Assembly (NCBI GenBank): GCA_913020725.1
Contig: CAJWCD010000096.1
Coordinates: 1-14,040 of the forward strand
Length of the DNA stretch: 14,040 bases
DNA from: an uncultured Pseudomonadota bacterium
GTDB lineage: Bacteria; SAR324; NAC60-12
Direction of reading: 5' to 3'
Position numbers and translations under genes: made by a program. Each line of letters starts with the position of its first letter. Position 1 is the stretch's first letter. Below are positions 3-13,915 of this stretch, in pieces. A model generated the notes under the pieces. It was not told the DNA's origin. It worked only from the letters and a program-made list of their open reading frames with translations, and did not search any database.

Positions 3-248
3 GCTTGCCTCTCTTCACCAGACGGTGAGTTGCACTTACGAGTTGAATCCGCGCTATCTTTTGGAGTGGAAGCTACCAGAATCTATGGTGAGTTGCCTAC
101 TCGTCTGGAACGCTCCGGAAAGCCTATTGGTCCGCTGGATCAGATGATTGCGGCCCATGCACTCAGTGAAAACACAGTGCTGGTGACCAACAACATCCGG
201 GAGTTCCAGCGTGTGGAGGGGGTGATGTTGGAGAACTGGGCAACCTGA
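3..248 (+). CDS. vapC: VapC-family PIN-domain toxin, C-terminal part only (5' end outside the window or degenerate)
   Basis: Frame is open from position 3 to TGA at 246-248. The C-terminus ..YGELPTRLERSGKPIGPLDQMIAAHALSENTVLVTNNIREFQRVEGVMLENW matches the VapC pattern IGxxDxxIAAHA..LVTNNxREFxRVxGLxLENW. The N-terminal DTN motif is not in the window. Confidence 0.8.
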   Translation, partial: ACLSSPDGELHLRVESALSFGVEATRIYGELPTRLERSGKPIGPLDQMIAAHALSENTVLVTNNIREFQRVEGVMLENWAT

Positions 249-251
249 GCG

Positions 252-725
252 TCAGAGCGGAAAGATCAGGCAGGTGGTGGTGCCGTGGGCGAGGAGCTTG
301 CCGGAGGCGTCCAGCAGCTTGCCTTCGGCAGTTCCGGTGCGGCGACCAACGTGGATCACGGAGCCTTCCGCCCGTACCGGTCCGGTTTCCGTGGTGATTG
401 GTCGCACGAGGTTCACTTTCAGTTCGAGGGTCGTGTAAGCCATGCCCGCTGCGCACATCGACTGCACTGCGCAGGACATCGCTGAATCGAGCAGCGTGCA
501 GGTGTAGCCCCCGTGAACCGTGCCGATGGGGTTGTAATGCTCCGGACCTGGAATCCCCTCGAACATGACCTTCCCCGCCTCAACTTCGATTGCAGCAAAA
601 CGGAGCGTTTGCGCCATCAGCGCTTGCGGGAGTCGTCCATCTATAATCCGTTGCAAGAACTCCAGCCCGGAAAGTGATTTCAGGAGATCGAGTGGAGCCG
701 TGTGGGAAGGTGTGGTGGAGTCCAT
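252..725 (-). CDS. PaaI-family (hotdog-fold) thioesterase
   Basis: Motifs HYNPIGTVHGG..TLLDSAMSCAV and YTTLELKVNLVRP..G.VIHVGRRTGTAEG are typical of PaaI. Start placed at ATG 725 (MDSTT); the ORF track's TTG at 740 is an alternative. Confidence 0.9.
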   Translation of the reverse strand: MDSTTPSHTAPLDLLKSLSGLEFLQRIIDGRLPQALMAQTLRFAAIEVEAGKVMFEGIPGPEHYNPIGTVHGGYTCTLLDSAMSCAVQSMCAAGMAYTTLELKVNLVRPITTETGPVRAEGSVIHVGRRTGTAEGKLLDASGKLLAHGTTTCLIFPL

Positions 726-749
726 GAGGTTTTCTGGCAAGTTAAGGTT

Positions 750-1499
750 TCAACTCCGGAGTGTTCGTTGTAAAAACCCCTCCGTTTCCTGAAGCACCGT
801 TTCTGCATCCTCATCAAGCAGCAGAACATGTTCAGAGTTTTCCAACCAACGGATTTTGCAGAAGGCAGAACCGACTCCCTGCTGAATCATTTCGCCACAG
901 TTTGCCCGGATGATAGGATCGTGGCGTCCCTGAAAAATGAGGAGCGGATGGTGCAGGCGTGGGAGCCGCTTCCGGACTTCAGTCTGGAGCCGGATGAGTT
1001 GCACCCCGGCTTTGAGGGGATTGACGGGATAGCCCTGCCACGGCATCTCGTCCTTGTCGCTGGCACGCTTGGGAACATGCGGGATAAACGGCGCGGCGAG
1101 GATGAAGCGCAGATGATCCCAGTCCGAAAAAGCCAAACGCAGCGCAGGAGCGTAGCAAATCACCGCCGCCAGTTCCGGATGCTCGCTGGCGAGGTGCAGG
1201 GCCAGCACCGCTCCAGCAGATTCGCCTGCAACCGCAAGGCACCGACACGATTGGGCCAGCGTTGCATAAGCCTGTTCGACCGTCTGAATCCACTGTTGGC
1301 GGGTGGTGAGATTGAGGTCGTCAGGCGTGGCGCCGTGTCCGGGCAACAATGGAGCCACCACGCGATAACCTCGGTCCCGGAGGTGTGCTGCCAGTGGTCG
1401 TACCTCGGCGGTGGTCGCGGTCAAGCCGTGGAGCAGAAGAACACCAAATTCTCCGTCCCCCCAATCGAGGGAACCCCCCTCAAGCTGGGGGTTGATCAA
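750..1499 (-). CDS. Alpha/beta-hydrolase, carboxylesterase/monoacylglycerol-lipase-like (~249 aa)
   Basis: GVLLLHGLT oxyanion region, APLLPGHG, nucleophile elbow GESAG (GxSxG), Asp in GRHDPII, His in NSEHV. Start moved to in-frame TTG at 1499 (LINPQL..), 17 bp after the msrP stop; the ORF-track start at 1610 overlaps msrP. Confidence 0.85.
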   Translation of the reverse strand: MINPQLEGGSLDWGDGEFGVLLLHGLTATTAEVRPLAAHLRDRGYRVVAPLLPGHGATPDDLNLTTRQQWIQTVEQAYATLAQSCRCLAVAGESAGAVLALHLASEHPELAAVICYAPALRLAFSDWDHLRFILAAPFIPHVPKRASDKDEMPWQGYPVNPLKAGVQLIRLQTEVRKRLPRLHHPLLIFQGRHDPIIRANCGEMIQQGVGSAFCKIRWLENSEHVLLLDEDAETVLQETEGFLQRTLRS

Positions 1500-1516
1500 C
1501 GGCCATTCCAGGGTTT

Positions 1517-2464
1517 TCAAAACAAACGCTGGCCCACGGGCATCCTTTTGTAGAGTCCGGCGACCTCTTCCGCGTAACCGTTGAAGGGCTGCGTGGGTTC
1601 CTTCTCCCAAAAGCGTCCGCCCAAAACACGGTGCTTGGCCTGTGACCAGCGCGGGTGATCCACGAGCGGATCAACATTGCTGTAAAACGGATACTCACGA
1701 GGAGCCTGCGCCTCCCATGTGGTGCTTGGCTGCTCCCGAGTCAATTCGATACGCACAAGGCTTTTTCCGGATTTGAGTCCGTATTTCCACGGCACCACAA
1801 TCCGCATGGGACCACCGTTCTGTTTTTGCAAGGGGTGTCCGTAAGCCCCCACGGTCAGCAGGGTGAGGTCGTGCAGGGCTTCGTCAATCCGCAGCCCTTC
1901 CTCGTAAGGCCCGAAGCGTCGCCAATTTGGCATGTCCTTGCCGTGGTAGGTGACGAAGCGCACAAACTTCGCAGCACTGGTCGGCTCCACCAACTTGAGC
2001 AAACGATGCAACGGCCAGCCGTTCCAGACAAAGCGTCCAAACCACGCCTCCACGCAGCGGAAGTTGTAAAGCCGTTCCTCCGGTTTTCCAAGCCGCTTCA
2101 TCAGATCGCTCAGGTCGAGCGTCAGCGGCTTGGTGACCTCGCCGTCAATCTGGATCATCCACGGGTCCGCCGGGGTCCACGAGCGCACCTTGTGCTGCAC
2201 TTCCTCCTTGTCGAAGGAGAACTCGTAGTAGTTGTTGTGGCCCGTGAAGAGTTCGTAGGGCGTGGCGTCCGGATAGGTTTCCGGAGAAACCTTGGGCAAA
2301 TCCTCCAAGGCTTTGGAGCCGCCCGTCAGCCAGTTCAGTGGGCCGGCTTGTGTTGAGGTGGCCAAAAGGGTACTTAGCCCGGCGAAGCCCAAGGCTCGCA
2401 CCACCTCGCGGCGCTTCCAGAACAACGCTTCCGGAGTCGCGTCAGAGTCTTTCCAACGTTTCAT
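1517..2464 (-). CDS. msrP: Periplasmic protein-methionine-sulfoxide reductase, molybdopterin catalytic subunit (MsrP/YedY)
   Basis: Tat-type leader (ATPEALFWKRREVVRALG..TQA), NNYYEF, Mo-ligand motif FRCVEAW, QNGGPMRIVVPWKYG, EYPFYSNVDP.VDHPRWSQA, T.PFNGY. Shine-Dalgarno AAGGA upstream of the ATG. Confidence 0.93.
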   Translation of the reverse strand: MKRWKDSDATPEALFWKRREVVRALGFAGLSTLLATSTQAGPLNWLTGGSKALEDLPKVSPETYPDATPYELFTGHNNYYEFSFDKEEVQHKVRSWTPADPWMIQIDGEVTKPLTLDLSDLMKRLGKPEERLYNFRCVEAWFGRFVWNGWPLHRLLKLVEPTSAAKFVRFVTYHGKDMPNWRRFGPYEEGLRIDEALHDLTLLTVGAYGHPLQKQNGGPMRIVVPWKYGLKSGKSLVRIELTREQPSTTWEAQAPREYPFYSNVDPLVDHPRWSQAKHRVLGGRFWEKEPTQPFNGYAEEVAGLYKRMPVGQRLF

Positions 2465-2542
2465 AAGCTTCCTTTCATGATTGGGATTTAAGATGAAGTC
2501 GGGCCATTCCCAGAAACCTTACAAAACAAGAACCCATCAAGT

Positions 2543-3748
2543 TCACGCTTTGATGATATTGTGTTCCGGACCAAAGGAGAAGCCCGTAATGTTCTCGGCT
2601 CCGTCTGCGGTGACAACAAGGATGTCATGCTCACGGTAGCCGCCTGCGCCGGGCAGACCTTCTGGTAGCATGAGCATCGGTTCCATCGAAACCACCATGT
2701 TTGGTTCCAGCACCGTTTCGATGTCCTCGCGCAGTTCCAGCCCGGCTTCGCGTCCGTAGTAGTGCGAGAGCGAACCGAAGGAATGTCCATAGCCAAAGGT
2801 GCGGTATTGCAGCAGGCCATGCTCCTTGAAGATCTCGTTGAGTTCCAAGGCAATGTCACAGCAACGCGCTCCGGGACGGATCAACTCCAACCCTCGGCGA
2901 TGCACCTGACAGTTCACCTCCCAGAGCCGCAGATGTTCGTCGGATGCATGGTCGAGGAAGAGGGTACGTTCTAAGGCGGTGTAGTAGCCCGCGATCATCG
3001 GGAAGCAGTTGAGACTGAGGATGTCGCCCTTCTGCACTGAGCGCGTGGTGAGTGGGTTGTGCGCCCCGTCGGTGTTGAGCCCGGACTGGAACCATGTCCA
3101 CGTGTCCATCAGGTCGCTGTCGGGGTAACGCTTGGCGATTTCCTGAACCATCGTATGAGTGGAGTGTCGGGCGATCACAAATTCGGGCACACCTGCGCCC
3201 AGTGCTGCGACACACGCCGCCCCGCCGATGTCTGCGACTTGCGCACCATTCCGGATCAGTTCGATCTCTTCGGGAGTCTTGAGTAAACGTTGCTTCATGC
3301 TTGGCAAGCCAATGTCCACGATTTCCTTGTCCGGAAGCGCGGCTTGCAGCTTTTGGTGCATTGCTAGGTTCATGTGGTCAAATTCTACACCAATGCAACC
3401 TTTCACAGCAACGAGTTCCTGCACTCCGACAAAGAAGTTATCGCGGGTCCAGTCCGTGAAGGTCAGCGCCTCGCCGTAGCCGCGACGCCACGGTTGCCCG
3501 CCGTCAATGTTAGCAACAATCGAGGTCACATCGTCCTGCGTCACCACCAGCCCATACGGACGGCCAAAGGCACAATAGACAAAGTGGTTGTAGTAGTTGA
3601 TGTTGTGGAAGGACGTGAAGAGGACAGCGTCCATGCAGGATGCGACCATCAACTTGCGCAGCTTGGCAAGTCGGCCTGCCATCTCGGCCTTGGAGAAGAT
3701 GGCGGGGGTTTTCTCGCCGTTGTGAATGGTGAGGGTTTTGGACACCAT
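2543..3748 (-). CDS. Creatinase (creatine amidinohydrolase, metal-independent M24 fold; creatine to sarcosine + urea)
   Basis: Resembles Pseudomonas putida creatinase as recalled: KTL.I.NGEK, FTSFHNINYY, CAFGRPY, ANIDGGQPWRR, DTWTWFQSGLNTDGAHNP (catalytic His), GYYTALERTLFL, YRTFGYGHSFG.LSHYYGREAGLELRED, SMEPM, GAGGYREHDIL. Shine-Dalgarno AAGGAG upstream. Confidence 0.95.
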   Translation of the reverse strand: MVSKTLTIHNGEKTPAIFSKAEMAGRLAKLRKLMVASCMDAVLFTSFHNINYYNHFVYCAFGRPYGLVVTQDDVTSIVANIDGGQPWRRGYGEALTFTDWTRDNFFVGVQELVAVKGCIGVEFDHMNLAMHQKLQAALPDKEIVDIGLPSMKQRLLKTPEEIELIRNGAQVADIGGAACVAALGAGVPEFVIARHSTHTMVQEIAKRYPDSDLMDTWTWFQSGLNTDGAHNPLTTRSVQKGDILSLNCFPMIAGYYTALERTLFLDHASDEHLRLWEVNCQVHRRGLELIRPGARCCDIALELNEIFKEHGLLQYRTFGYGHSFGSLSHYYGREAGLELREDIETVLEPNMVVSMEPMLMLPEGLPGAGGYREHDILVVTADGAENITGFSFGPEHNIIKA

Positions 3749-3846
3749 AGGAACACTCCTTTGTTTAGGGTTTGTGTTTTAACTTGGCTTTGCCCTGCTG
3801 GATTCGTAGCATGGCAACTTTTGATTCAACCTCCTTTCAGGATCGC

Positions 3847-4176
3847 ATGGAAATCCTCAATACTCTGCTGATTGGCATGGGCAGCGGCCTCGTGCTTGGC
3901 GTGCTGGGCATGATTCTCTTCACGGCGGACAAGGCGGATGAATATCCATTTCTAGGACTCCTTCCTGCCGGACTGGTGGTGATGGACTTGGGGGTCGGTA
4001 CGCAGGTTGTGGCCGCAGGCTTGCTGCTGATGAGTGGGTTGTTCGGGTACTACCTGATGATCTTCATCTGGCGAGGCCGTCCCAAGTTGTTCGCACTTGC
4101 TCAGGGCCACGAAGAGTCTGCTCCGGCAACCCGCGCTGAAACCATCACAGGCAAGACGCTCGCCGACTTCCTCTGA
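3847..4176 (+). CDS. Small hypothetical membrane protein (~109 aa, about 3 hydrophobic segments)
   Basis: Hydrophobic stretches ILNTLLIGMGSGLVLGVLGMILF, PFLGLLPAGLVVMDLGV and VVAAGLLLMSGLFGYYLMIFIW, then a polar tail. Fills the gap divergent from creatinase and is followed by a hairpin. Start could also be ATG 3811. Confidence 0.65.
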   Translation: MEILNTLLIGMGSGLVLGVLGMILFTADKADEYPFLGLLPAGLVVMDLGVGTQVVAAGLLLMSGLFGYYLMIFIWRGRPKLFALAQGHEESAPATRAETITGKTLADFL

Positions 4177-4208
4177 GGGAATCACCTTGTTGTCAAGGAC
4201 GATCCCTC
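4175..4208 (+). terminator. Stem-loop after the membrane-protein gene (possible terminator or processing hairpin)
   Basis: GAGGGA..CCTTG-TTGT-CAAGG..TCCCTC imperfect inverted repeat overlapping the stop codon; the downstream tract (CTCTTC) is only weakly U-rich. Confidence 0.4.
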
Positions 4209-4271
4209 CTCTTCACACTTGAGCAGATCCTGCCCGTTTAGTCACGAGCATTGAACGGAATTCTTGAAATA

Positions 4272-4294
4272 CACATTTCGGGTTCCACATTTCG
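4272..4294. repeat. 9-bp direct repeat CACATTTCG x2 (4272-4280, 4286-4294)
   Basis: Read directly: a-CACATTTCG-ggttc-CACATTTCG-ctag, 50 bp upstream of the M24 peptidase start. Confidence 0.7.
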
Positions 4295-4344
4295 CTAGAA
4301 AGCGTCAACGTCCGTTGTCTTAAAACTCCGAACACCTCTGCTCT

Positions 4345-5520
4345 ATGGCTAATGTTCCTAAACGTGGTTTTCCTGTTTGCGAATTCGACGCTCGTCTGAA
4401 ACGAACGCAACAGCTCATGGCGACCAAAAGTTTAGCTGGTATTTTGCTGATGAGCGAAGCGGAAGTGCGCTATCTCAGTGGTTTTCATACGCAGTTTTGG
4501 CAAAGCCCAACCCGTCCGTGGTTTCTTTTTGTGCCGGCTGACAAAAAACCGATTGCCGTCATTCCGGAGATTGGCGCCGCGCTTATGAGTCAAACTTGGA
4601 TTGAGGATATTCGTACTTGGAACGCACCTTCGCCAAAAGATGACGGCATCAGCCTGTTGCTTGATCTGCTTGCGCCATTGTCGAAACAGGGCGCACGCTT
4701 GGGTCTTATGAAAGGACACGAAACCAGCTTGCGCATGCCGCTTGGAGATTACGAACGCTTGATGTCCGGATCATCGGGACTGGAGTTGGTTGATGCGACA
4801 GACATCCTGCGAAGTTTGCGCATGGTGAAATCTGCTGACGAGATTGAAAAAATCGCCCATATTTGTGCCATCGCCTCGCAGACTTTTGATCGTGCGAATG
4901 ATATTTTTTACAAGGGTCAACCGCTTGCAGAAGCCTTCCGTGTTTTTCGCATGGAATGCCTAGCACAAGGCGCTGATGATGTTCCTTATTTGGCTGGAGG
5001 TGCAGATCAAGGCGGCTATCGCGATATTATCTCACCTCCTTCGCAGCGACCGTTACAGTCCGGAGATGTTTTGATGTTGGACACCGGTGCCACTTTTGAC
5101 GGTTATTTTTGTGATTTTGATCGTAATTTTGCGATTGATGAGGTCAATGATCTGTCACACCGTGCCTATGATATTTTGTGGCGCGCAACAGAAGCAGGGC
5201 TTGCCGCCGCACGTCCGGGCATTACCTGCCGTGAATTATTTCAGGCCATGCAAAATGTTATTTCAGAAATAGACGATCAAGGCGGTGAGGTTGGCCGATA
5301 TGGTCATGGTCTGGGGATGCAACTGACAGAATGGCCTTCGCACGCAGCCTTTGACGAGACCGTATTAGCAGAAAACATGGTCATTACGCTGGAGCCTTCA
5401 CTGAACTATGGGAATGGGCAAATCATGGTGCATGAAGAAAACCTCGTTGTGCAAAATGGTGCTCCACGACTCTTATCCGTGCGTGCTGCTCCAGAACTTC
5501 CAGTGATCGGTGGAAGCTGA
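4345..5520 (+). CDS. M24-family (Xaa-Pro peptidase/ectoine-hydrolase-like) metallo-hydrolase with creatinase-type N-terminal domain
   Basis: N-terminal EFDARLKRTQQLM..EVRYLSGF, linker LRMVKSADEI, and all five pita-bread metal ligands: D and D in LDTGATFDGYFCDFDR, H in GHGLG, E in TLEP, E in HEENL. No clear Shine-Dalgarno. Confidence 0.9.
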   Translation: MANVPKRGFPVCEFDARLKRTQQLMATKSLAGILLMSEAEVRYLSGFHTQFWQSPTRPWFLFVPADKKPIAVIPEIGAALMSQTWIEDIRTWNAPSPKDDGISLLLDLLAPLSKQGARLGLMKGHETSLRMPLGDYERLMSGSSGLELVDATDILRSLRMVKSADEIEKIAHICAIASQTFDRANDIFYKGQPLAEAFRVFRMECLAQGADDVPYLAGGADQGGYRDIISPPSQRPLQSGDVLMLDTGATFDGYFCDFDRNFAIDEVNDLSHRAYDILWRATEAGLAAARPGITCRELFQAMQNVISEIDDQGGEVGRYGHGLGMQLTEWPSHAAFDETVLAENMVITLEPSLNYGNGQIMVHEENLVVQNGAPRLLSVRAAPELPVIGGS

Positions 5521-5551
5521 AATCAAATTGAGTTGTTAAGGCATATCAGCA

Positions 5552-6385
5552 ATGTCAAAAATTTTAACAGACCAACAGATTCAGCAATATCATGATGATG
5601 GGTTTATTGCACCGCTACGGGTAATGCCAGAAGATGAAGCCTTCTCGATAAAAACTCAGCTTGAAGAAGCAGAAAGAGCGTTTTCTGATGAGTTTAATGC
5701 AGAAAATCGCAATAATTTACATCTCATTTTTTCGTTTCTGGATGAATTGGCTCACAACACGGTGATCGTGGATGCCGTAGAAGATTTGATTGGCCCAGAC
5801 ATCGCTTTGTGGGGTTCCGTTATGTTTACCAAAGAATCCTCATCCGATCATTATGTGAGCTGGCATCAGGATGCAACCTACATGGGAATGAATAGCAACG
5901 ACTTCCTAACGCCTTGGATTGCGTTAACACCAAGCAACATAGAAACGGGATGTATGGCGATGATACCCGGCAGTCACAAGCAAAATATCCACAGGCATGA
6001 AGACACTTTTTCTGAAAATAACATCTTAACACGAGGTCAGGTTGTCAAAGATGTTGATGAGTCAAAGGCGGTCAATTTGATTCTGAAACCTGGAGAAATT
6101 TCTATTCACCATGGCGCTGTCATTCATGGATCAAAGCCAAATAAAAGTAAGCAAAGAAGAATAGGCTTTGCTCTACAGGCCTATATGCCACCCAGTGTAA
6201 AACAGCTTATTGGCAAGAATATCTGGATGCATGTGCGTGGCAAACAAAGACAAGATCTTGATAGAGTAGCTTTGAAGCGTCCACAATACGATATGGATTC
6301 GAGTTCAGTATTGCAACGAAAACTAGTTAACGAAAACTACTCAAATATTCTCTATAAAGGATCTAAAACTAAACGTAAATATTAG
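5552..6385 (+). CDS. PhyH-family Fe(II)/2-oxoglutarate-dependent dioxygenase
   Basis: LTDQQIQQYHDDGF start, FTKE, facial triad WHQD..HGS, WIALT..ETGCMAMIPGSH, LKPGE, 2OG-binding Arg in RRIG. Confidence 0.92.
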   Translation: MSKILTDQQIQQYHDDGFIAPLRVMPEDEAFSIKTQLEEAERAFSDEFNAENRNNLHLIFSFLDELAHNTVIVDAVEDLIGPDIALWGSVMFTKESSSDHYVSWHQDATYMGMNSNDFLTPWIALTPSNIETGCMAMIPGSHKQNIHRHEDTFSENNILTRGQVVKDVDESKAVNLILKPGEISIHHGAVIHGSKPNKSKQRRIGFALQAYMPPSVKQLIGKNIWMHVRGKQRQDLDRVALKRPQYDMDSSSVLQRKLVNENYSNILYKGSKTKRKY

Positions 6386-6414
6386 ATTTTCTTGTTTCTG
6401 TTGAATCATAAAGA

Positions 6415-6441
6415 TTGGCAGAAAAAGATGAGAACTACAAT
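6415..6441 (+). promoter_or_regulatory. Possible sigma70-type promoter for the amidinotransferase
   Basis: TTGGCA (6415-6420), 15-nt spacer, TACAAT (6436-6441). The spacer is short and the region is AT-rich, so a chance match is possible. Confidence 0.3.
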
Positions 6442-6503
6442 AAATACGACGCCTGAAATAACCAGAATTTTTTCTTCAAACCAAACTAATGGAGAGTTGT
6501 AAA

Positions 6504-7643
6504 ATGCCGGAGCAAGCTGCCACTGTTGTCTATTCGTGGGACGATTTTTCCCCACTCAAGCACGTCATCGTTGGTCGTGCCGACCACACCTGCATCCCGC
6601 CCAGCGAACCCGCCACCGAAGCCAAGGTTCCGGAGGACAGCGACATGCGCGGCATGTGGGGACCGCGCCCGTTGGAAACCATCGAGAAAGCGAACGGACA
6701 GCTTGAGCACTTGGTGAGCATTCTCGAAAAGCGCGGGATTCGCGTGGACCGTCCCAACCCCATTCAGTGGAATCAAGCGACACTCACTCCGGATTTCACC
6801 ACGGGTTCGATGTTTGGATGCATGCCGCCGCGTGATGTTTTGCTCACGGTTGGCCACGAAATCCTCAGCACTCCGATGTCCTTCCGCTGCCGCTATTGGG
6901 AGTACCTCGCGTATCACTCGCTGATGCAGCGCTATTTTGACGAGGATCCCAATTTCCGTTGGGAGCAGGCTCCGCGTCCCCGGCTCACCGATGCCTCCTA
7001 CCAGCAGGGGTACTTTGATGAGATCACCATTGAGGAGCGTCTGCGCCGTACCGCAGAACTGGATTTTGTCACGACCGAGCACGAACCACTCTTCGATGCA
7101 GCGGACATTTTACGCATCGGCAAAGACCTGTTTTGTCAGCATGGACTCACCACCAATCGGCGCGGCATGGAATGGCTCCAGCGCCACTATCCGGATCATC
7201 GCGTCCATGCCGTCAATTTCCCGGGTGATCCCTACCCCATCCACATCGACGCGACCTTTGTCCCGCTCCGCCCTGGACTGATCATCAACAACCCGAAGCG
7301 TCGGCTTCCGGAAGAGCAGCGCAAGATTTTCGCTGCGAACGGCTGGGAGATCGTTGATGCTGCACCTCCCGCCCACACTGAGCCGCCGCCGTTGTGCTAC
7401 TCCAGCGTCTGGCTTTCCATGAACTGCCTCGTGCTCGACCCCAAGACGGTGTGTGTTGAGGCAAGCGAGGTCCATCAAATGGAGCAAATGGATCAATTGG
7501 GCATGGAGGTGATTCCGGTTCCGTTCCGGGATGCGTATCCCTTCGGGGGTGGACTGCACTGCGCCACGGGTGACGTGTACCGCGAGGGAGGCTGCGAGGA
7601 CTACTTTCCTAAACAGATTCCGGGCACTCAGATTCGTTCGTAG
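6504..7643 (+). CDS. Amidinotransferase similar to L-arginine:glycine amidinotransferase (AGAT)
   Basis: SWDDFSPLKHVIVGRA, TPDF, MPPRD, FVTTEHEPLFDAAD (catalytic Asp), HIDATF (His), SSVWLSMN.LVLD, GGGLHCAT.DV.R.G (nucleophilic Cys); collinear with vertebrate AGAT as recalled. Start at ATG 6504 because GGAGAG (6491-6496) lies 7 nt upstream. Confidence 0.93.
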   Translation: MPEQAATVVYSWDDFSPLKHVIVGRADHTCIPPSEPATEAKVPEDSDMRGMWGPRPLETIEKANGQLEHLVSILEKRGIRVDRPNPIQWNQATLTPDFTTGSMFGCMPPRDVLLTVGHEILSTPMSFRCRYWEYLAYHSLMQRYFDEDPNFRWEQAPRPRLTDASYQQGYFDEITIEERLRRTAELDFVTTEHEPLFDAADILRIGKDLFCQHGLTTNRRGMEWLQRHYPDHRVHAVNFPGDPYPIHIDATFVPLRPGLIINNPKRRLPEEQRKIFAANGWEIVDAAPPAHTEPPPLCYSSVWLSMNCLVLDPKTVCVEASEVHQMEQMDQLGMEVIPVPFRDAYPFGGGLHCATGDVYREGGCEDYFPKQIPGTQIRS

Positions 7644-7664
7644 GAACACGCCTCGCCAGAGCGC

Positions 7665-8549
7665 TTAGGACGGGGTGATGCCCCGCAGTCGTTCGGTGCG
7701 GCGGCGCAGCAGTTCCACGGTCGTCAGCAAGAGGATGGAGATGATCACAAGGATGGTCGCCGCCGAGAGGATCGTCGGGCTGATTTCTTGGCGAATCCCG
7801 GACCACATCTGGCGGGGCAAGGTGATTTGATCCGGCCCCCCCACGAAGAGGACAATCACCACCTCATCAAAGGAGGTGATGAACGCAAAAAGCCCTCCGG
7901 AAATAACTCCTGGCAAAATCAGCGGCATTTGGATTTTGAAGAAATTGCGGATAGGAGCGCCACCTAAACTGGCAGCAGCTTTGGTGAGGTTGTGATCAAA
8001 ACCGACCAAAGTGGCGGTGACGGTGATGACCACAAAAGGCAGACCCAGAATGGTGTGCGCAAATATCAAACCTGTGAAGGTCGCAACGAGGTTAAGTTTT
8101 GCAAAAAAGAAGAAAATCCCTGATGCAGTAATGATCAACGGGACAATCAACGGCGAAATCATGATGGCCATGATCACTCTGCGATAGGGCATGATGGGGC
8201 GACTGAGCCCGAGCGCACCCAAGATGCCTAGCGTGGTTGCTAGAAATGTGGCAATCACGCCGATGAACAGGCTGTTCTTTGCACCAACGACCCAATTGTC
8301 ACTGCAAACAGTCGTGATCCCCGGATCAGAACAATCCCCGATCAGCAGCCGATACCAGCGCAACGAAAACGCTTCCGGATCGAAGGCGAGCATCCCCGCA
8401 GTGAACTCCAAAAACGGTGACGCCGAAAACGAAATCGGAATCACGACCAGTAGCGGCATCACCAAGAAGAACAGCACCAAGGCACAAATCGCCAAATAGG
8501 TGTAGTGCCAAAGCCGTTGGGCTGGAGTTGCGTAAATCGGGAGTCCCAT
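7665..8549 (-). CDS. ABC transporter permease, PotC-like
   Basis: FSLRWY, SPLIVPLII, AHTILGLPFVV, EAA-loop variant LTKAAASLGG, FITSFDEVVI.LF, TLPRQMWSGIR; multiple transmembrane segments; starts 3 bp after the upstream permease stop. Confidence 0.93.
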   Translation of the reverse strand: MGLPIYATPAQRLWHYTYLAICALVLFFLVMPLLVVIPISFSASPFLEFTAGMLAFDPEAFSLRWYRLLIGDCSDPGITTVCSDNWVVGAKNSLFIGVIATFLATTLGILGALGLSRPIMPYRRVIMAIMISPLIVPLIITASGIFFFFAKLNLVATFTGLIFAHTILGLPFVVITVTATLVGFDHNLTKAAASLGGAPIRNFFKIQMPLILPGVISGGLFAFITSFDEVVIVLFVGGPDQITLPRQMWSGIRQEISPTILSAATILVIISILLLTTVELLRRRTERLRGITPS

Positions 8550-8552
8550 CCG

Positions 8553-10178
8553 TCAACCGAGTTTCATGTTGTCAACACCGACAAGTTTGTCATAAATCCA
8601 GTAGAGGATCATGATCGCGCCAAGCAGAACCGTGCCCATCGCAGCCGCCAGACCCCAGTTGAGGGATTTCTGCATGTGATACGCCACCATGTTTCCAATC
8701 AGCTTGCCATCCTTTCCGCCCACTAACTCCGGGGTGATGTAGTAACCAATCGCAACAATGAACACCAAAATCACTCCGGCCCCCACCCCCGGAAGGGTCT
8801 GCGGCATGTACACCCGCAGGAAAGCCAGTGAGGGCGTGGCCCCAAGATTCTGCGCGGCCCTCATGAAACTTGGCGGGATTCCCTTCATCACGCTATAAAT
8901 CGGCAGGATCATGAACGGCAGCAGAATCTGAATCATCACGATCACCGTGCCCGTGAAGTTGTACATCATGGGCAGGCGGTTCTCATCGGCAAGGATTCCG
9001 GCAGTGACCAGTACGCTGTTGACCACCCCCTCTTGTTGGAGCATCACCATCCACGCCACAATACGGACGAGCAGCGAAGTCCAGAAGGGCATCAAAACAC
9101 AGATCATCAAGAGGTTGGAATACTTGAGCGGCAGGGTCGCTAACAGGTGTGCGGTCGGATACGCCAAAAGCAGGCAACCTACTGTGACAATGAAACTCAG
9201 AAGCAAGGTTCGCCACCAGAGCATCACATAAACCTGCCGTTCCTCCGGTTGCATGATGATGCTCTTGCTCTCATCAAATTTCCGGTCGAAGGCATTCAGG
9301 TAATACACGCTCGTGAAGGGGTCTTTCATGACGATGAGGGATTGCCAGACCGCCACGTCCCCCCAGCGGTTGTCAATCTTGATCAGGGCTTCCTTGTACG
9401 GAGGGTTTTTTATTTTTTTGAAATTGCGTCTGGATTTCTTGACCAGACTTTTCCAGCCTGGTTTTTCGTAGTTCATCCGGGTGCTGGATTTTCCTGCCAG
9501 AAATTTCTGAGCAGAACTGAGGTCTTTGTAGAGGGCACTGTAAAATTTTTCTCCCGGAACACTCTGTTGATCCCAAGCTTTCAACACCTTGAACATTCTG
9601 CTGCAAGCGGCATTCGCCAGTGGTGTGAGAGAAGAACAGATATCAAACTGCGCACGTTTTTGAACATTGCGCATGTCCCGCTTTGTTCCTTGAAATTCCA
9701 AAGCATCTTGGACAAGCTTACTGAGTGGTAGCCAGGTTTCGACTTCACCCCAGCGTGGATTGATTTGCAGGATGTGTTCTTTGTAAGGCCCTCTTTTGGG
9801 AATCTCTACATGCCATCCGGGATCCTCCAGATCAACTTGGCTTCCGGTGTTGTTGGCAATCAAGAATTTGTTGATTGTTCCCAAATCAAAGTACACGGCC
9901 TCAAACAGTTCCTCGTCAGGCAGGGTTTGCCGATCCCACTTCTCGATGAGCCGGAAGGTCAGCGGCAATTGGTGGTTGATGAGTTGATCATCCACACTAC
10001 GCGTGAGCAAGTTGCTGATGGGAAGCACGAACATCAGCAACAAAAACAGCAGGGGCGGCAACACGAGCATCGTTGCGCGCAACTTGTTGCGGCGCATCGA
10101 GCGCTGGAGGCTGACCTTCAGCGGGGTGCCGTCTGCGGTCAGCAGGGGCGGAGTCGCCGTGATGGAGGCGCTGGGCAT
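8553..10178 (-). CDS. ABC transporter permease, PotB-like, with a large duplicated extracytoplasmic insertion (541 aa)
   Basis: C-terminal half has LLLAYP.A, LMPFWTSLLVR..AW, LLPFMILPIYSVM, EAA loop RAAQNLGA, GYYITPELVGG, NWGLAAA. Residues ~60-315 are a soluble insertion after the first transmembrane helix. Confidence 0.93.
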   Translation of the reverse strand: MPSASITATPPLLTADGTPLKVSLQRSMRRNKLRATMLVLPPLLFLLLMFVLPISNLLTRSVDDQLINHQLPLTFRLIEKWDRQTLPDEELFEAVYFDLGTINKFLIANNTGSQVDLEDPGWHVEIPKRGPYKEHILQINPRWGEVETWLPLSKLVQDALEFQGTKRDMRNVQKRAQFDICSSLTPLANAACSRMFKVLKAWDQQSVPGEKFYSALYKDLSSAQKFLAGKSSTRMNYEKPGWKSLVKKSRRNFKKIKNPPYKEALIKIDNRWGDVAVWQSLIVMKDPFTSVYYLNAFDRKFDESKSIIMQPEERQVYVMLWWRTLLLSFIVTVGCLLLAYPTAHLLATLPLKYSNLLMICVLMPFWTSLLVRIVAWMVMLQQEGVVNSVLVTAGILADENRLPMMYNFTGTVIVMIQILLPFMILPIYSVMKGIPPSFMRAAQNLGATPSLAFLRVYMPQTLPGVGAGVILVFIVAIGYYITPELVGGKDGKLIGNMVAYHMQKSLNWGLAAAMGTVLLGAIMILYWIYDKLVGVDNMKLG

Positions 10179-10212
10179 GGAAGTCTCAATCGTCCGGAAA
10201 GCAAGCCGTCCT

Positions 10213-10249
10213 AAAGAAACGGGGAACCGCCGTTGCCGACGACTCCCCG
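10213..10249 (-). terminator. Rho-independent terminator/attenuating hairpin between binding-protein and permease genes
   Basis: Minus strand reads CGGGGAGTCGTCG-GCAA-CGGCGGTTCCCCG-TTTCTTT: 13-bp stem fully paired only on this strand (three G-U pairs), GNRA tetraloop, U-rich tail. Confidence 0.85.
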
Positions 10250-10276
10250 CTCTTCATGCAGAACAACTGAAAGGGG

Positions 10277-11383
10277 TTACTTGCCCATCCACGCCGTGAA
10301 GCGCTCCGAGATGGAGTCGCCGTTGTCCGCCCACCATTCAGGATTAGCGTATAATCCACCTTTCATGTGCTCATCCGTGTTAGGCATGTGCGGCATGATG
10401 TTCTTACCGTTGTGGAAGAAGGGCTCATTAGCCGCGAGGATTGCCATGCCGGATTTTCTCATCGGACCATAGTTGATCCACTTGGCCTGACCTGCTTGCT
10501 GAGCAGGTGCTGAGGCGTGAACCAGAAAGCGCAGGGCTTCGTCATAGTTCGGGGTACCTTTGGTCATTACCAGCCATTCCTCTTCAAGCACCTGACCATC
10601 CCAGATTGGAACAAACGGAGCGTCTTCTGAAAGAATAGCAGCACCAACACGACCGTTATAGGCCAGCGCCATCGACGTCTCTCCGCTCATGACGAACTCC
10701 AGTGGCTTTGCTCCGGCCGACCAGAAGACGACGTGGTCCTTAATTGTATCCAACTTGGCGAACGCACGGTCAATGCCAGCCGGGGTGTCCATGACCTTGT
10801 ACACGTCGCTGGCGGCAACGCCATCGGCCATCAGCGCCATTTCGATGAGTGCGTTGGCCCATGTATGAATTCCACGTTTGCCCTTAAACTTGTTGACGTT
10901 GAAGAAGTCGCCAATCGTCGAGGGCTGCGCCCCGGAGAAGGTACCCTTCTTGTAGAATGCCATGTAGGACCACCAGATCTGCGGAACAACGCAGTCATTG
11001 GGTGCTTGGACAAACATGTCCTGATCCATCGGGGTACCGTCCGGAGCCTTAGCAAAAACGTCCCGAGGCAATTCCTCAAACAGACCTTCGTCACAGCCTG
11101 TACGAGCCTGACTAGGCAAAACGTCCACGATGTCCCACTGGATACTTCCCGATTCTACCTGGGTTCGCACTTCTCCCAAACCACCGTTGTAGTTAACAAA
11201 TTTTACTTTTCCACCAATAAGAGGTGAATCAGAAAAGGTGTCCCCATAGGCCTTCTGCTGGCTCATGGTGTAGGCACCGCCCCAGGAGGCGATGGTGACC
11301 TCTGCAGACGCTTGGCTCGCAAAGCCGACAGCACCCAGCACAGCCGATACCGCCAGTGCCATTACGCGATTCATGACTTTCAT
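10277..11383 (-). CDS. ABC transporter periplasmic substrate-binding protein (polyamine/opine-type superfamily, substrate unknown)
   Basis: Sec signal peptide ending ASQASA|EV, TIASWGGAY, YNGGLGEVRTQVESG..WDIVD, IEMALMADGV, AFAKLDTIK, AYNGR, INYGP. Shine-Dalgarno AGGAG upstream. Confidence 0.93.
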   Translation of the reverse strand: MKVMNRVMALAVSAVLGAVGFASQASAEVTIASWGGAYTMSQQKAYGDTFSDSPLIGGKVKFVNYNGGLGEVRTQVESGSIQWDIVDVLPSQARTGCDEGLFEELPRDVFAKAPDGTPMDQDMFVQAPNDCVVPQIWWSYMAFYKKGTFSGAQPSTIGDFFNVNKFKGKRGIHTWANALIEMALMADGVAASDVYKVMDTPAGIDRAFAKLDTIKDHVVFWSAGAKPLEFVMSGETSMALAYNGRVGAAILSEDAPFVPIWDGQVLEEEWLVMTKGTPNYDEALRFLVHASAPAQQAGQAKWINYGPMRKSGMAILAANEPFFHNGKNIMPHMPNTDEHMKGGLYANPEWWADNGDSISERFTAWMGK

Positions 11384-11476
11384 AAGGTTTCTCCTAATGA
11401 AGTGAAATTATATGAGATCGGGAAGCACCCCGAATCCCAGCTCAGTTAGGGCTTGAGTCCCTGCGAGGCAGTTGCT

Positions 11477-12577
11477 TCAAGCCGTGGCGGGCACATCAAG
11501 TGCCCGTGCATCCTCTGCCAGCCAGCCCACCTGCACCGCATCCCCCGGTTGCAGAGAGGCGTGGCCTGCAGAGTTTGGGACCTTGACGATGAAATCGTCA
11601 TGGCCACAGACATTAACTCGGGCACGGATATGGTCCCCAAGGTAAATCAGTTCCTCCACTTGTCCATTCGCAAGGTTGGGGCAACTTCCCTCTTCTGGAT
11701 TGATCACCACCCGCTCCGGACGTAAGGAAATCATGGCCGGTTTGGAAACCCCCGCGATCTTCACGGAGGTGGCTTCAAAACGCTCGCCCGTTGCCATCAC
11801 GACTAGGCAGCGGCCATTTCCTTCCGAAACAACCTCGCCAACGAGCGTGTTGTTCTCCCCAATGAACTGCGCGACAAAGGCATTCTCCGGAGCTTCATAG
11901 AGTGCTTCCGGAGCCGCTAATTGCTGGATGACTCCGTCGTTGAAGACCGCAATGCGGTTCGACATCGTCAGCGCCTCACTCTGGTCATGGGTGACATAAA
12001 CAACGGTGACGCCCAAGTTTTCGTGGATGTGCTTGATCTCGTACTGCATCTGCTCCCGGAGTTGCTTGTCGAGCGCTCCGAGCGGTTCGTCCATCAAAAC
12101 GAGCTTGGGCTCGAACACCAGTGCCCGCGCCACGGCGACCCGCTGTTGCTGGCCTCCAGAAAGTTGCGCTGGACGGCGACGGGCAAAATCCTGCAACTGC
12201 ACCATCCCCAACGCCTTCTTGACGCGCTCGTCAATCTCGCTCTTGAGCAGCTTGCGCACCTCCAGTGGGAAGGCGAGGTTTTCGTACACCGTCATGTGCG
12301 GGAAGAGCGCATAGTTCTGGAAAACCATGCCGATGTTGCGCTTGTGCGGCGGAACATTGTTGATGGGGGTGCCGTCGAGGATGATCTCACCGTGGGTGGC
12401 GGTCTCAAAGCCCGCGATCATCATCAGACAGGTGGTCTTCCCAGAGCCGGATGGCCCCAGCATCGTGAGGAATTCACCCTCCACGATATCGAGGTTGAGG
12501 TTCTTGACCACGAGGGTCTCACCGTCGTAGCTCTTCTGGACTTTCTGAAAGCGGACGTAGGCTTCGCTGGAGGGCAT
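11477..12577 (-). CDS. ABC transporter ATP-binding subunit, PotA-like with C-terminal TOBE domain
   Basis: Walker A GPSGSGKTT, Q-loop VFQNYALFPHM, signature LSGGQQQR, Walker B VLMDEPLGALD, H-loop VTHDQ, SLRPER and YLG TOBE motifs. Start at ATG 12577; the ORF-track TTG at 12643 coincides with a -35 box. Confidence 0.95.
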   Translation of the reverse strand: MPSSEAYVRFQKVQKSYDGETLVVKNLNLDIVEGEFLTMLGPSGSGKTTCLMMIAGFETATHGEIILDGTPINNVPPHKRNIGMVFQNYALFPHMTVYENLAFPLEVRKLLKSEIDERVKKALGMVQLQDFARRRPAQLSGGQQQRVAVARALVFEPKLVLMDEPLGALDKQLREQMQYEIKHIHENLGVTVVYVTHDQSEALTMSNRIAVFNDGVIQQLAAPEALYEAPENAFVAQFIGENNTLVGEVVSEGNGRCLVVMATGERFEATSVKIAGVSKPAMISLRPERVVINPEEGSCPNLANGQVEELIYLGDHIRARVNVCGHDDFIVKVPNSAGHASLQPGDAVQVGWLAEDARALDVPATA

Positions 12578-12615
12578 GCTCACTCGTGAGAGGTTTTCAA
12601 ATGCCAAACGGTCAC

Positions 12616-12643
12616 ACCTTAACAGGGGGGTACAAAATGTCAA
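12616..12643 (-). promoter_or_regulatory. Sigma70-type promoter of the ABC operon
   Basis: Minus strand: perfect TTGACA (12643-12638), 16-nt spacer ending in TGn, TAAGGT (12621-12616), about 40 nt upstream of the ATPase ATG. Confidence 0.65.
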
Positions 12644-12670: not shown

Positions 12671-13915
12671 TCAACGAGCGGACGCTCCCTGCGCAAACCA
12701 GGTGGCGATGAGCTGGCGTTCGGCTTCCGTGATCTGTGTGAGGTTGCCGAGCGGCATGTAGCCAATGCGGACGGTTTCGGCGAGCTTGACCGTGTGTTGA
12801 GCGACTTGTTCCGGAGTTTCCAGCATCACGCCTTTGGGCGGTTGGGCGAATCCCGGTTGTGTTGGCTGGGCCGCATGGCAGGTGACGCAACGCTGCTTCA
12901 GCACCTGCTGCACCTGCGCGAAACTCACCTGCTCGTTTCCGGAAGCGGTTTCCAAAGACTTGGGTGCCAGTGCCACCATAAGTCCCACCAACAGCACGGT
13001 TCCGGACAGCGGTAGCCACCATCGGCTTTCACCTCGATGCCGCAGCACGAAAAACTGCCGGATCAGCACCCCCGCCAGCATAATCACCAGCAGCACGAGC
13101 CAGCCGTGTTCATGGCTGTAGGTCATCGGGGAGTGGTTGCTGATCATGATGAACAGCACGGGCAGCGTGAAGTAGGTGTTGTGAACCGAGCGCTGCTTGC
13201 CGATGACTCCGGGCGTGGGGTCAACCTCCGCGCCTGCCCGGATTTGCGCGACCATCTTTTTCTGTCCGGGGATGATGTGGAAGAAGACGTTGGCAACCAT
13301 CATCGTGCCCAGCATCGCACCAACGTGAACGAACGCCGCCCGTGCGCTGAAGAGTTGGAACAACGCATAATCCGACGCCACCACGAAGACGAAAACCAGC
13401 ATGGCCAGCAGGTTGTCCTTGCCCACCAGCAGCCGGCAGAGTCCATCGTAAGCGAACCAACCGACGCCAATGAAGGCGACGCTGAGGCTGATGGCTTGAG
13501 CGGAAGTCAATGCCAGCACCCGCGAGTCAATCAGGAAGGCGTTCGCTCCAAACCAATAGATCAGCGCCAGTAGCGCCATTCCGGAAAGCCAAGTGGTGTA
13601 GGCTTCGTACTTTGTCCAATGCAAGTCGTCGCTGAGGGGTTCGCCTTTGGGGCCAGTCAGGAATTTCTGGCTCACATAAAACCCACCGCCATGCACTGCC
13701 CAGAGTTCCCCGAACACCCCGCGCTGCTCATCCTCTGGGTGCTTGGGCGGCTTCAGCGAGAAATCGAGCATCACGAAATAAAACGATGAGCCAATCCACG
13801 CCACTCCGGCGATGACGTGCAGCCAGCGCACCAGCAGGTTGGCCCAGTCGAGCAGGTAGGATTCCATCAGCCTTGCTTGTGAAATAGAGCGCACATCATC
13901 AGAAGAAAATACCAT
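12671..13915 (-). CDS. puuD: Membrane-bound cytochrome c urate hydroxylase (PuuD)
   Basis: LDWANLLVRWLHVIAGVAWIGSSFYF, GELWAVHGGGFY, LHWTKYEAYTTWLSG, GAMLGTMMVANVFFHIIPGQ, KQRSVHNTYFTLPVLFIMISNH; several transmembrane helices; C-terminal heme motif CVTCH (12875-12889) and MPLGNLT. Start is 13915 (AGGAGGAGG immediately upstream) or 13867 (MESYLLD). Confidence 0.92.
   Translation of the reverse strand: MVFSSDDVRSISQARLMESYLLDWANLLVRWLHVIAGVAWIGSSFYFVMLDFSLKPPKHPEDEQRGVFGELWAVHGGGFYVSQKFLTGPKGEPLSDDLHWTKYEAYTTWLSGMALLALIYWFGANAFLIDSRVLALTSAQAISLSVAFIGVGWFAYDGLCRLLVGKDNLLAMLVFVFVVASDYALFQLFSARAAFVHVGAMLGTMMVANVFFHIIPGQKKMVAQIRAGAEVDPTPGVIGKQRSVHNTYFTLPVLFIMISNHSPMTYSHEHGWLVLLVIMLAGVLIRQFFVLRHRGESRWWLPLSGTVLLVGLMVALAPKSLETASGNEQVSFAQVQQVLKQRCVTCHAAQPTQPGFAQPPKGVMLETPEQVAQHTVKLAETVRIGYMPLGNLTQITEAERQLIATWFAQGASAR

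Follow-up and report, generated by a model that had tools for sequence, protein, structure and literature searches.

Creatinase, an AGAT-family amidinotransferase and a Pot-type importer share a patchwork neighbourhood in a SAR324 bacterium

Creatine and related guanidino compounds are nitrogen-rich metabolites of animals and algae, and to our knowledge their use by ocean bacteria has been little studied. The closest described systems are the classical route through creatininase, creatinase and sarcosine oxidase, the vertebrate arginine:glycine amidinotransferase (AGAT or GATM; EC 2.1.4.1), and the bacterial secondary-metabolite amidinotransferases HsvA, SxtG and StrB1. Here we analyse a 14,040-nucleotide stretch of DNA (the window; contig CAJWCD010000096.1 of assembly GCA_913020725.1, our contig C96) from an uncultured SAR324 bacterium, in which a creatinase gene and an AGAT-like gene lie close to a complete ATP-binding cassette (ABC) importer. 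The source genome comprises 3.45 Mb, is 93% complete and has a G+C content (GC) of 0.568. No description of a bacterial creatinase-AGAT unit was found in the literature searched, which did not cover subscription journals; a sponge-microbiome paper, in those parts available to us, treats creatinase and creatine and never an amidinotransferase (PMC6742649).

A sequence-only reading of this DNA had proposed that a creatinase, an AGAT-like amidinotransferase, a dioxygenase, a second M24 hydrolase and an importer form a single system. All of these genes are present where that reading placed them, and alignments to 1CHM and 1JDW/1JDX confirm its statement that the creatinase and the AGAT-like protein have intact catalytic motifs. 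Because the gene identities and the catalytic residues hold, the observation itself was correct. The five genes are, however, not one co-inherited pathway. We give even chances to the reading that they form a patchwork nitrogen-scavenging neighbourhood, in which creatinase and importer would serve creatine-type zwitterions, the AGAT-family enzyme is predicted to act in salvage, and an M24/PhyH pair has been inserted. The features concerned, from a scan of the 14 window open reading frames (ORFs) against family models, are as follows (aa, amino acids):

2543-3748, minus strand: creatinase (creatine amidinohydrolase, EC 3.5.3.3 orthologue), 401 aa; matches to 1CHM, 7YTO and 1KP0; Creatinase_N and Peptidase_M24 domains
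3772-4176, plus strand: small hydrophobic ORF, 134 aa, upstream of the AGAT-side genes; no Pfam hit
4178-6500, plus strand: 2.3-kb lower-GC insertion relative to sister genome G001, carrying the M24 and PhyH genes; blastn against sister locus L001
4345-5520, plus strand: M24 metallohydrolase, prolidase-like and not creatinase-type, 391 aa; Creatinase_N and Peptidase_M24 domains; matches to 1WY2 and 1PV9
5552-6385, plus strand: PhyH-family Fe(II)/2-oxoglutarate dioxygenase, 277 aa; PF05721, E 3e-28
6489-7643, plus strand: AGAT-family amidinotransferase, 384 aa; alignment to 1JDW/1JDX
7665-8549, minus strand: PotC-like ABC permease, 294 aa; BPD_transp_1; PotC model at E 3e-40, under its cut-off
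8553-10178, minus strand: PotB-like ABC permease, 541 aa, with an N-terminal extension of ~280 aa; BPD_transp_1; PotB model on residues 315-532 only
10277-11383, minus strand: periplasmic substrate-binding protein SBP_bac_8, 368 aa; PF13416, E 8e-38
11477-12643, minus strand: PotA-type ABC ATPase with a TOBE domain, 388 aa; TIGR01187, 390.9 bits against a cut-off of 355.6

Judged by its alignments, the gene at 2543-3748 is a true creatinase. Its product matches the Pseudomonas putida creatinase 1CHM across residues 3-400 (E 2e-186) and the further solved creatinases 7YTO (E 3e-174) and 1KP0 (E 2e-163), has the corresponding domain make-up (PF01321 and PF00557, that is, Creatinase_N and the M24 pita-bread domain), and keeps the TDGAHNP stretch, which we take to hold the catalytic His. 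Partner genes of the creatininase, soxB-like or urease type do not adjoin it, and none lies in the window. Elsewhere in the genome we found one creatininase-family gene (contig C72), a soxB-like gene (contig C55) scoring 446 bits, below the 529 cut-off, one arginase-family fragment, and several DAO-type matches in open frames of 830-885 aa, a length that makes them likely to be DMGDH-like. Neither ureC nor a full-length urea carboxylase nor allophanate hydrolase was found in this 93%-complete genome, which is not proof of absence; the sister genome G001 carries ureC on a 1.7-kb contig. Among 41 SAR324 relatives (G000-G040), ureC was found in one of nine creatinase carriers versus 13 of the 32 others. 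SAR324 creatinase carriers thus seem to be mostly without urease, so a route that keeps the amidino nitrogen would be useful to them. We dropped an arginase bypass, in which arginine and sarcosine would yield creatine for the creatinase: an arginase-family gene exists, and sarcosine as the acceptor is unsupported.

The gene at 6489-7643, by the same kind of evidence, is an AGAT-type amidinotransferase (EC 2.1.4.1 family). Residues 13-373 of its product align to human AGAT 1JDW/1JDX (E 2e-86 to 3e-86), with weaker matches to HsvA (5WPI, 3e-66), SxtG (6U1R, 8e-61) and StrB1 (1BWD, 1e-49); Pfam gave no hit above cut-off, only ADI at E 0.0054. For comparison we collected 80 loci, from one genome per species, with homologues 80-93% identical; 28 of these loci span less than 15 kb, so some of their flanks are unseen. 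They belong mostly to marine Gammaproteobacteria (Granulosicoccaceae, Arenicellales, Poriferihabitaceae), to whose homologues the window protein is 80-88% identical. The window creatinase, by contrast, is only 54-70% identical in the order of the Arenicellales genome G041, and this difference points either to very strong constraint or to a recent inter-phylum transfer. The equivalents of the human triad Cys407-His303-Asp254 are C358, H252 and D203 in the window protein and are kept in all 80 loci, as are those of the guanidino/carboxylate-site residues D170, D305, R322 and S355. At the lid, the position of human N300 is Tyr in 74 loci and Trp in six, and that of M302 is Ile in all 80. The roles given to these residues (catalytic triad, guanidino and carboxylate binding, lid tuning of specificity) follow the structural literature.

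AGAT homologues of this clade are widespread and highly conserved, usually lack conserved neighbours, and have repeatedly been placed beside creatinase. Metagenome clusters of the clade hold up to about 1,000 sequences, and 42 of the 101 genomes in the order that includes the Arenicellales genome G041 carry the gene. Several NCBI records of the clade are named 'serine/threonine protein kinase', which looks like a propagated misannotation, JGI naming them 'glycine amidinotransferase'; none of the 120 listed records has a precomputed Pfam domain. A methyltransferase directly after AGAT in locus L044 was considered as a guanidinoacetate methyltransferase (GAMT) and rejected, its PDB matches being generic methyltransferases with no GAMT entry among them. 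No GAMT partner turned up near AGAT, a genome-wide GAMT search not having been made; and, as the sequence-only reading had it, the 14 window ORFs include no methyltransferase and no secondary-metabolite family.

Creatinase stands beside AGAT in three unrelated lineages. The first is SAR324 genus g1, in which the two genes are divergent, with start codons 2.74 kb apart in the window; within SAR324 they are adjacent only in G000 and G001. The second is the gammaproteobacterial locus L056, where creatinase (62% identical) is followed on the same strand, after ~22 bp, by AGAT (83%; tblastn and ORF reading). The third is L153, from a SAR11-like genome of 1.3 Mb and GC 0.30, where EamA, creatinase (58%), AGAT (67%), Beta_elim_lyase and M24 genes follow one another on one strand. 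The tandem gaps between creatinase and AGAT measure roughly 10-30 bp in L056 and L153. An AGAT of at least 59% identity occurs in eight of the 401 genomes sampled from the class of G145 (source of locus L004, labelled Rhodospirillaceae), the L153 genome being one of the eight. A further locus from the sample of this class, L156 (G354:C1:673000-692999; a genome of 1.6 Mb and GC 0.30), has an AGAT homologue (58%) followed on the same strand by Amdase-like, PALP, ornithine cyclodeaminase, PALP and M20 genes; farther on lies an M24 relative, and this context differs from the creatinase one.

In the 80-locus set, creatinase occurs within 10 kb of AGAT in two loci, L001 (the sister genome) and L056, against a chance expectation that we roughly estimate at 0.2-0.4. 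Since the pairing recurs independently and exceeds this expectation, the creatinase-AGAT link is real, though sporadic. Among the 41 SAR324 relatives, five have a close AGAT and nine a creatinase, including all five AGAT carriers; creatinase is found in four of the 36 without a close AGAT, a comparison that overstates the association because the genomes are kin.

The importer is a complete PotABCD-type system in a single minus-strand run (7665-12643) of an ATPase, two BPD_transp_1 permeases and an SBP_bac_8 binding protein, adjoining the AGAT side as had been claimed. Its PotB-like permease has one hydrophobic segment (residues 32-63) followed by a hydrophilic stretch of ~250 aa. By eye, this stretch contains two similar halves of ~110 aa, each with W-D-x-Q ... 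N/D-x-R-W-G-x-V. The 541-aa form aligns over its full length in G022, G133 and G143 and over 531 aa in G041. Two importer clades can be told apart: clade A, the window type, combines the 541-aa permease with a binding protein of 60% identity or more, and in clade B the binding protein is 38-41% identical.

Of the nine creatinase-bearing SAR324 genomes, six (G000, G001, G005, G006, G013 and G022) have a Pot-type importer no more than 8 kb from creatinase; the contigs of G016 and G023 are too short to tell, and G019 has none in view. The importer is directly adjacent to creatinase in G005, and the window type lies 4 kb away in G022. G006 has importer, M24, CN_hydrolase and creatinase on one strand, and G013 has importer, M20, three M24 genes, CN_hydrolase, two purine genes and creatinase, the middle M24 being an 83% orthologue of the window's. 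These one-strand clusters (G013:C36, loci L101/L145; G006:C1, locus L104) make up a larger amidohydrolase island. In G055, a member of G041's order, a clade-B importer and a DAO-FAO_M-GCV_T dehydrogenase flank creatinase. The pairing of creatinase with a Pot-type importer therefore recurs within SAR324 and is also seen in one genome of G041's order. The co-location that the sequence-only reading described thus stands for creatinase directly beside AGAT, in three lineages, and for creatinase with a Pot-type importer, and falls for the five-part set.

The substrate of this importer is probably not what its family label, 'spermidine/putrescine', implies; the PotD and PotF equivalog models do not match the window binding protein. 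The nearest solved relative of that protein is 8JV1, 'SAR11 PotD in complex with GABA' (GABA, gamma-aminobutyric acid; E 3e-81), which a fold search aligns over 338 residues at Z 43.1, a root-mean-square deviation of 2.4 and 43% identity. Like the osmolytes that such proteins bind, creatine is a small zwitterion. From its PDB entry title, 8JV1 appears to be SAR11_1336, a potD product described as binding glycine betaine (Kd 2 nM), dimethylsulfoniopropionate (DMSP) and other osmolytes, and not polyamines (PMC11485210). Because the nearest solved relative is an osmolyte binder, a small zwitterion such as creatine is a reasonable putative substrate, and creatine uptake and hydrolysis by this importer and creatinase are likely.

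The M24 and PhyH genes have a different history. They sit on a 2.3-kb insertion that is missing from the sister genome: by blastn, window positions 2526-4177 and 6501-10179 align to L001 (G001:C98) at 81-83%, and between these blocks lie 2324 bp in the window versus 95 bp in L001. No direct or inverted repeats flank the insertion, and the junction alignment shows no target duplication. Contigs from DNA runs of four studies bridge both junctions, indicating that the arrangement is real in natural populations and not an assembly artefact. The uneven base composition remarked on by the sequence-only reading is borne out, the M24 and PhyH genes having GC 0.50 and 0.40 versus 0.57-0.58 for creatinase and AGAT. 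The closest relatives of both genes belong to a lower-GC SAR324 genus: G013:C36:15712-16884 for M24 (83% protein identity, 78% DNA identity) and a fragment in G023 for PhyH (78%). Together, base composition and nearest relatives point to recent import of the pair from a related amidohydrolase island of a low-GC SAR324 genus.

The M24 hydrolase is closest among PDB entries to the Xaa-Pro dipeptidases 1WY2 and 1PV9 (E 1e-30); a HMMER alignment matches its metal ligands Asp, Asp, His and Glu to those of 1PV9/1WY2, with the fifth, Glu, offset by one residue. In the PhyH protein, H105, D107, H186 and H192 are invariant in seven relatives and give the HxD...H pattern, not the HxA of halogenases. Its structural model has a mean predicted local distance difference test score (pLDDT) of 64, a low confidence at which fold matches (best to ThoJ, 6ZYK/6ZYL, then to amino-acid hydroxylases) show the family only. 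The small ORF at 3772-4176 has hydrophobic stretches and is kept in the sister, where window 2526-4177 corresponds to L001 8255-9915 at 83% and the ORF lies at L001 9576-9914.

Four RNA libraries, each from a different study, contain contigs that match parts of the creatinase, small ORF, M24, PhyH, AGAT and potC genes, some without mismatch. They cover the small ORF (3908-4202) and bridge it to M24 (4116-4541) and M24 to PhyH (5430-5739). As these matches are contigs, strand, level and operon structure are not readable from them, and DNA carry-over is possible. A promoter and terminator scan of the window gave counts near shuffle level (10 and 12 sites versus 7.2 and 12.6 in shuffles), so transcription units are not definable from it.

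These data bear on whether all five parts serve one integrated pathway, whose steps would follow one another or run in parallel on a single family of imported guanidino compounds. We consider this highly improbable. The genes do lie within 10 kb, the 83%-identical M24 orthologue sits inside the importer-to-creatinase cluster of G013, an M24 paralogue closes the SAR11-like L153 operon, and the bridging RNA-library contigs span small ORF to M24 and M24 to PhyH. The same site in G001, however, is without M24 and PhyH, whose base composition and relatives indicate a low-GC SAR324 origin; PhyH adjoins neither AGAT nor creatinase in any other locus examined; and its paralogues are numerous, with four matches in G000 and up to seven in G015. 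The single system of the sequence-only reading is therefore not borne out, and conserved linkage of its parts in other genomes is largely absent: two of 80 loci, an insertion missing from the sister, and no genome-level association.

Several further observations weigh against the patchwork reading, and we give them together. For AGAT, 78 of the 80 loci are without creatinase in the DNA covered. Its immediate neighbours (134 of 147 scanned, in 77 loci, the remainder being nine ORFs of at least 995 aa and four of five similar ~900-aa ORFs) are varied, with EamA in 12 loci, old-yellow-enzyme in nine, DUF533 in seven, SnoaL in six, and MFS, DAHP synthase and molybdopterin oxidoreductase in five each; ornithine cyclodeaminase (two), arginase family (one) and agmatine deiminase (one) are rarer. 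Across the 101 genomes of G041's order, AGAT is present in 42, creatinase in 54 and both in 24, so that creatinase occurs in 24 of 42 AGAT carriers versus 30 of 59 non-carriers (24/18/30/29; Fisher p 0.55), and the closest pair on a shared contig is 14.5 kb apart. In the same order AGAT identity is 62-86% (all 42) and creatinase identity only 54-70%, a gap indicating different histories of the two genes. The two specificity-tuning lid residues, N300 and M302, differ from the animal Arg:Gly enzyme, so donor and acceptor are not assignable, a difference that concerns substrate choice and not membership in the AGAT family. The RNA-library matches are no proof of transcription. For the importer, clade A is far from creatinase in G041 (1.2 Mb) and G109 (~45 kb) and shares no contig with it in G133 and G143; in G041's order it adjoins a polar amino-acid transporter and an M20 peptidase; and the type most often beside creatinase is the clade-B paralogue, with its binding protein 38-41% identical. 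Window-type potC (89%) and potB (81%) adjoin AGAT only in L001 among the 80 loci. Creatine, guanidinoacetate and sarcosine do not occur in those supplementary files of the SAR11 study that were examined (PMC11485210).

The AGAT observations could mean that the two genes are chance neighbours, with an AGAT unrelated to creatinase running in the forward, biosynthetic direction. From arginine it would make a guanidino compound such as guanidinoacetate, taurocyamine or homoarginine, which in many genomes may leave the cell, or be exchanged, through the adjacent EamA or MFS transporter. We regard this as somewhat unlikely, and as the most probable of the alternatives. The 78 loci without creatinase, the lack of a genome-level association in G041's order, the strongly different conservation of the two genes across the same genomes, and the presence of EamA or MFS immediately beside AGAT in 17 of 77 loci all favour it, as does a preprint that lists marine metagenome-assembled GATM genes, via KEGG, as a taurine-to-taurocyamine step (10.1101/2024.12.10.627767). 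It has more difficulty with the tandem pairs of L056 and L153 and the divergent SAR324 g1 pair, which exceed the rough chance estimate, and with the SAR324 genomes, where creatinase accompanies close AGAT in 5/5 genomes versus 4/36 others, a contrast overstated by kinship; nor were any biosynthetic partner genes seen.

The importer observations allow a separate alternative, which we judge rather unlikely, that it is a general osmolyte transporter of the glycine betaine, DMSP or GABA type, unrelated to creatinase and AGAT and merely adjacent to them. That its nearest solved relative holds GABA, that SAR11_1336 is reported to bind glycine betaine and DMSP (PMC11485210), and that clade A is not beside creatinase in G041, G109, G133 and G143 argue for such a role. 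Clade A nevertheless occurs close to creatinase in G000, G001 and G022, three SAR324 genomes from two genera, a clade-A paralogue does so in four more genomes (G005, G006, G013 and G055), and creatine too belongs to the same type of small zwitterion.

Under the patchwork reading, the importer would take up creatine-type zwitterions and creatinase would split creatine, and the products of the soxB-like and DMGDH-like genes found on other contigs would convert the resulting sarcosine to glycine. The amidinotransferase, plausibly acting in reverse, would move the amidino group of a guanidinoacetate-type donor onto ornithine to give arginine and glycine, a direction in which the amidino nitrogen, lost as urea in the creatinase reaction, would be kept. 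The inserted M24/PhyH pair may act on some other imported amide.

A broader proposal, which we think quite unlikely, is that marine AGAT homologues in general catalyse the reverse reaction and so provide a salvage route without urea, in which ornithine accepts the amidino group from guanidinoacetate- or creatine-type compounds and the products are arginine and either glycine or sarcosine. Its scope would be ~40% of the sampled genomes in G041's order, along with SAR11-like and SAR324 bacteria. If correct, it would represent an unrecognised and widespread ocean sink for guanidino nitrogen and would complement creatinase in lineages mostly lacking urease. If the salvage direction is real, it would also add a new way of turning dissolved guanidino compounds into arginine and glycine and explain how creatinase carriers manage without urease. 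Whichever way the enzyme runs, marine bacteria commonly carry a close relative of the animal enzyme for creatine synthesis, and on at least three separate occasions its gene has come to lie next to a true creatinase.

The remaining window ORFs, identified by the family scan, lie on either side of these genes:

3-248, plus strand: VapC fragment
252-740, minus strand: hotdog thioesterase
750-1610, minus strand: alpha/beta hydrolase
1517-2464, minus strand: MsrP
12671-13915, minus strand: Urate_ox_N membrane protein (PuuD-like membrane urate oxidase)

MsrP has no MsrQ partner beside it. Between MsrP and creatinase, the sister locus has an extra 2.5 kb (L001 5786-8255; DUF1326 and a PpoB2 copper-chaperone-like gene) that the window is without. 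The Urate_ox_N gene ends 28 bp upstream of potA on the same strand and does not adjoin the importer in G022 or G041.

Compared with the classical creatininase-creatinase-sarcosine oxidase route, the window shares a creatinase highly similar to P. putida 1CHM over nearly its full length; its partner genes, however, are unclustered, and the creatinase neighbours an ABC importer and an amidinotransferase instead. With vertebrate AGAT/GATM (1JDW/1JDX) the amidinotransferase has in common a full-length alignment and seven catalytic and binding residues, and it differs in being bacterial and cytoplasmic, in its Tyr/Trp and Ile lid and, we infer, in a reversed physiological direction. HsvA, SxtG and StrB1 belong to the same fold family, yet they are farther from the window enzyme than animal AGAT is, and no biosynthetic cluster surrounds the AGAT gene in the window or in the 80 homologous loci. 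The importer's binding protein has the same PotD-like fold and the same misleading 'spermidine/putrescine' label as SAR11 PotD (8JV1), and the window permease carries a 280-aa extension. For the inserted dioxygenase, fold and iron ligands are common to ThoJ, a non-heme iron monooxygenase that hydroxylates a ribosomally synthesized and post-translationally modified peptide (~28% identity in the structural alignment), and fold and HxD...H ligands to the PhyH-fold amino-acid hydroxylases proline hydroxylase H11, GriE and EctD. The closest arrangement is the SAR11-type L153 operon, which likewise has a true creatinase and a close AGAT homologue as direct neighbours, together with a transporter and an M24 paralogue in the vicinity. 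There the pair is in tandem and the transporter is of the drug/metabolite (EamA) type, whereas in the window the pair is divergent and 2.7 kb apart with an insertion between, the transporter is an ABC importer, and the threonine-aldolase-like gene is missing.

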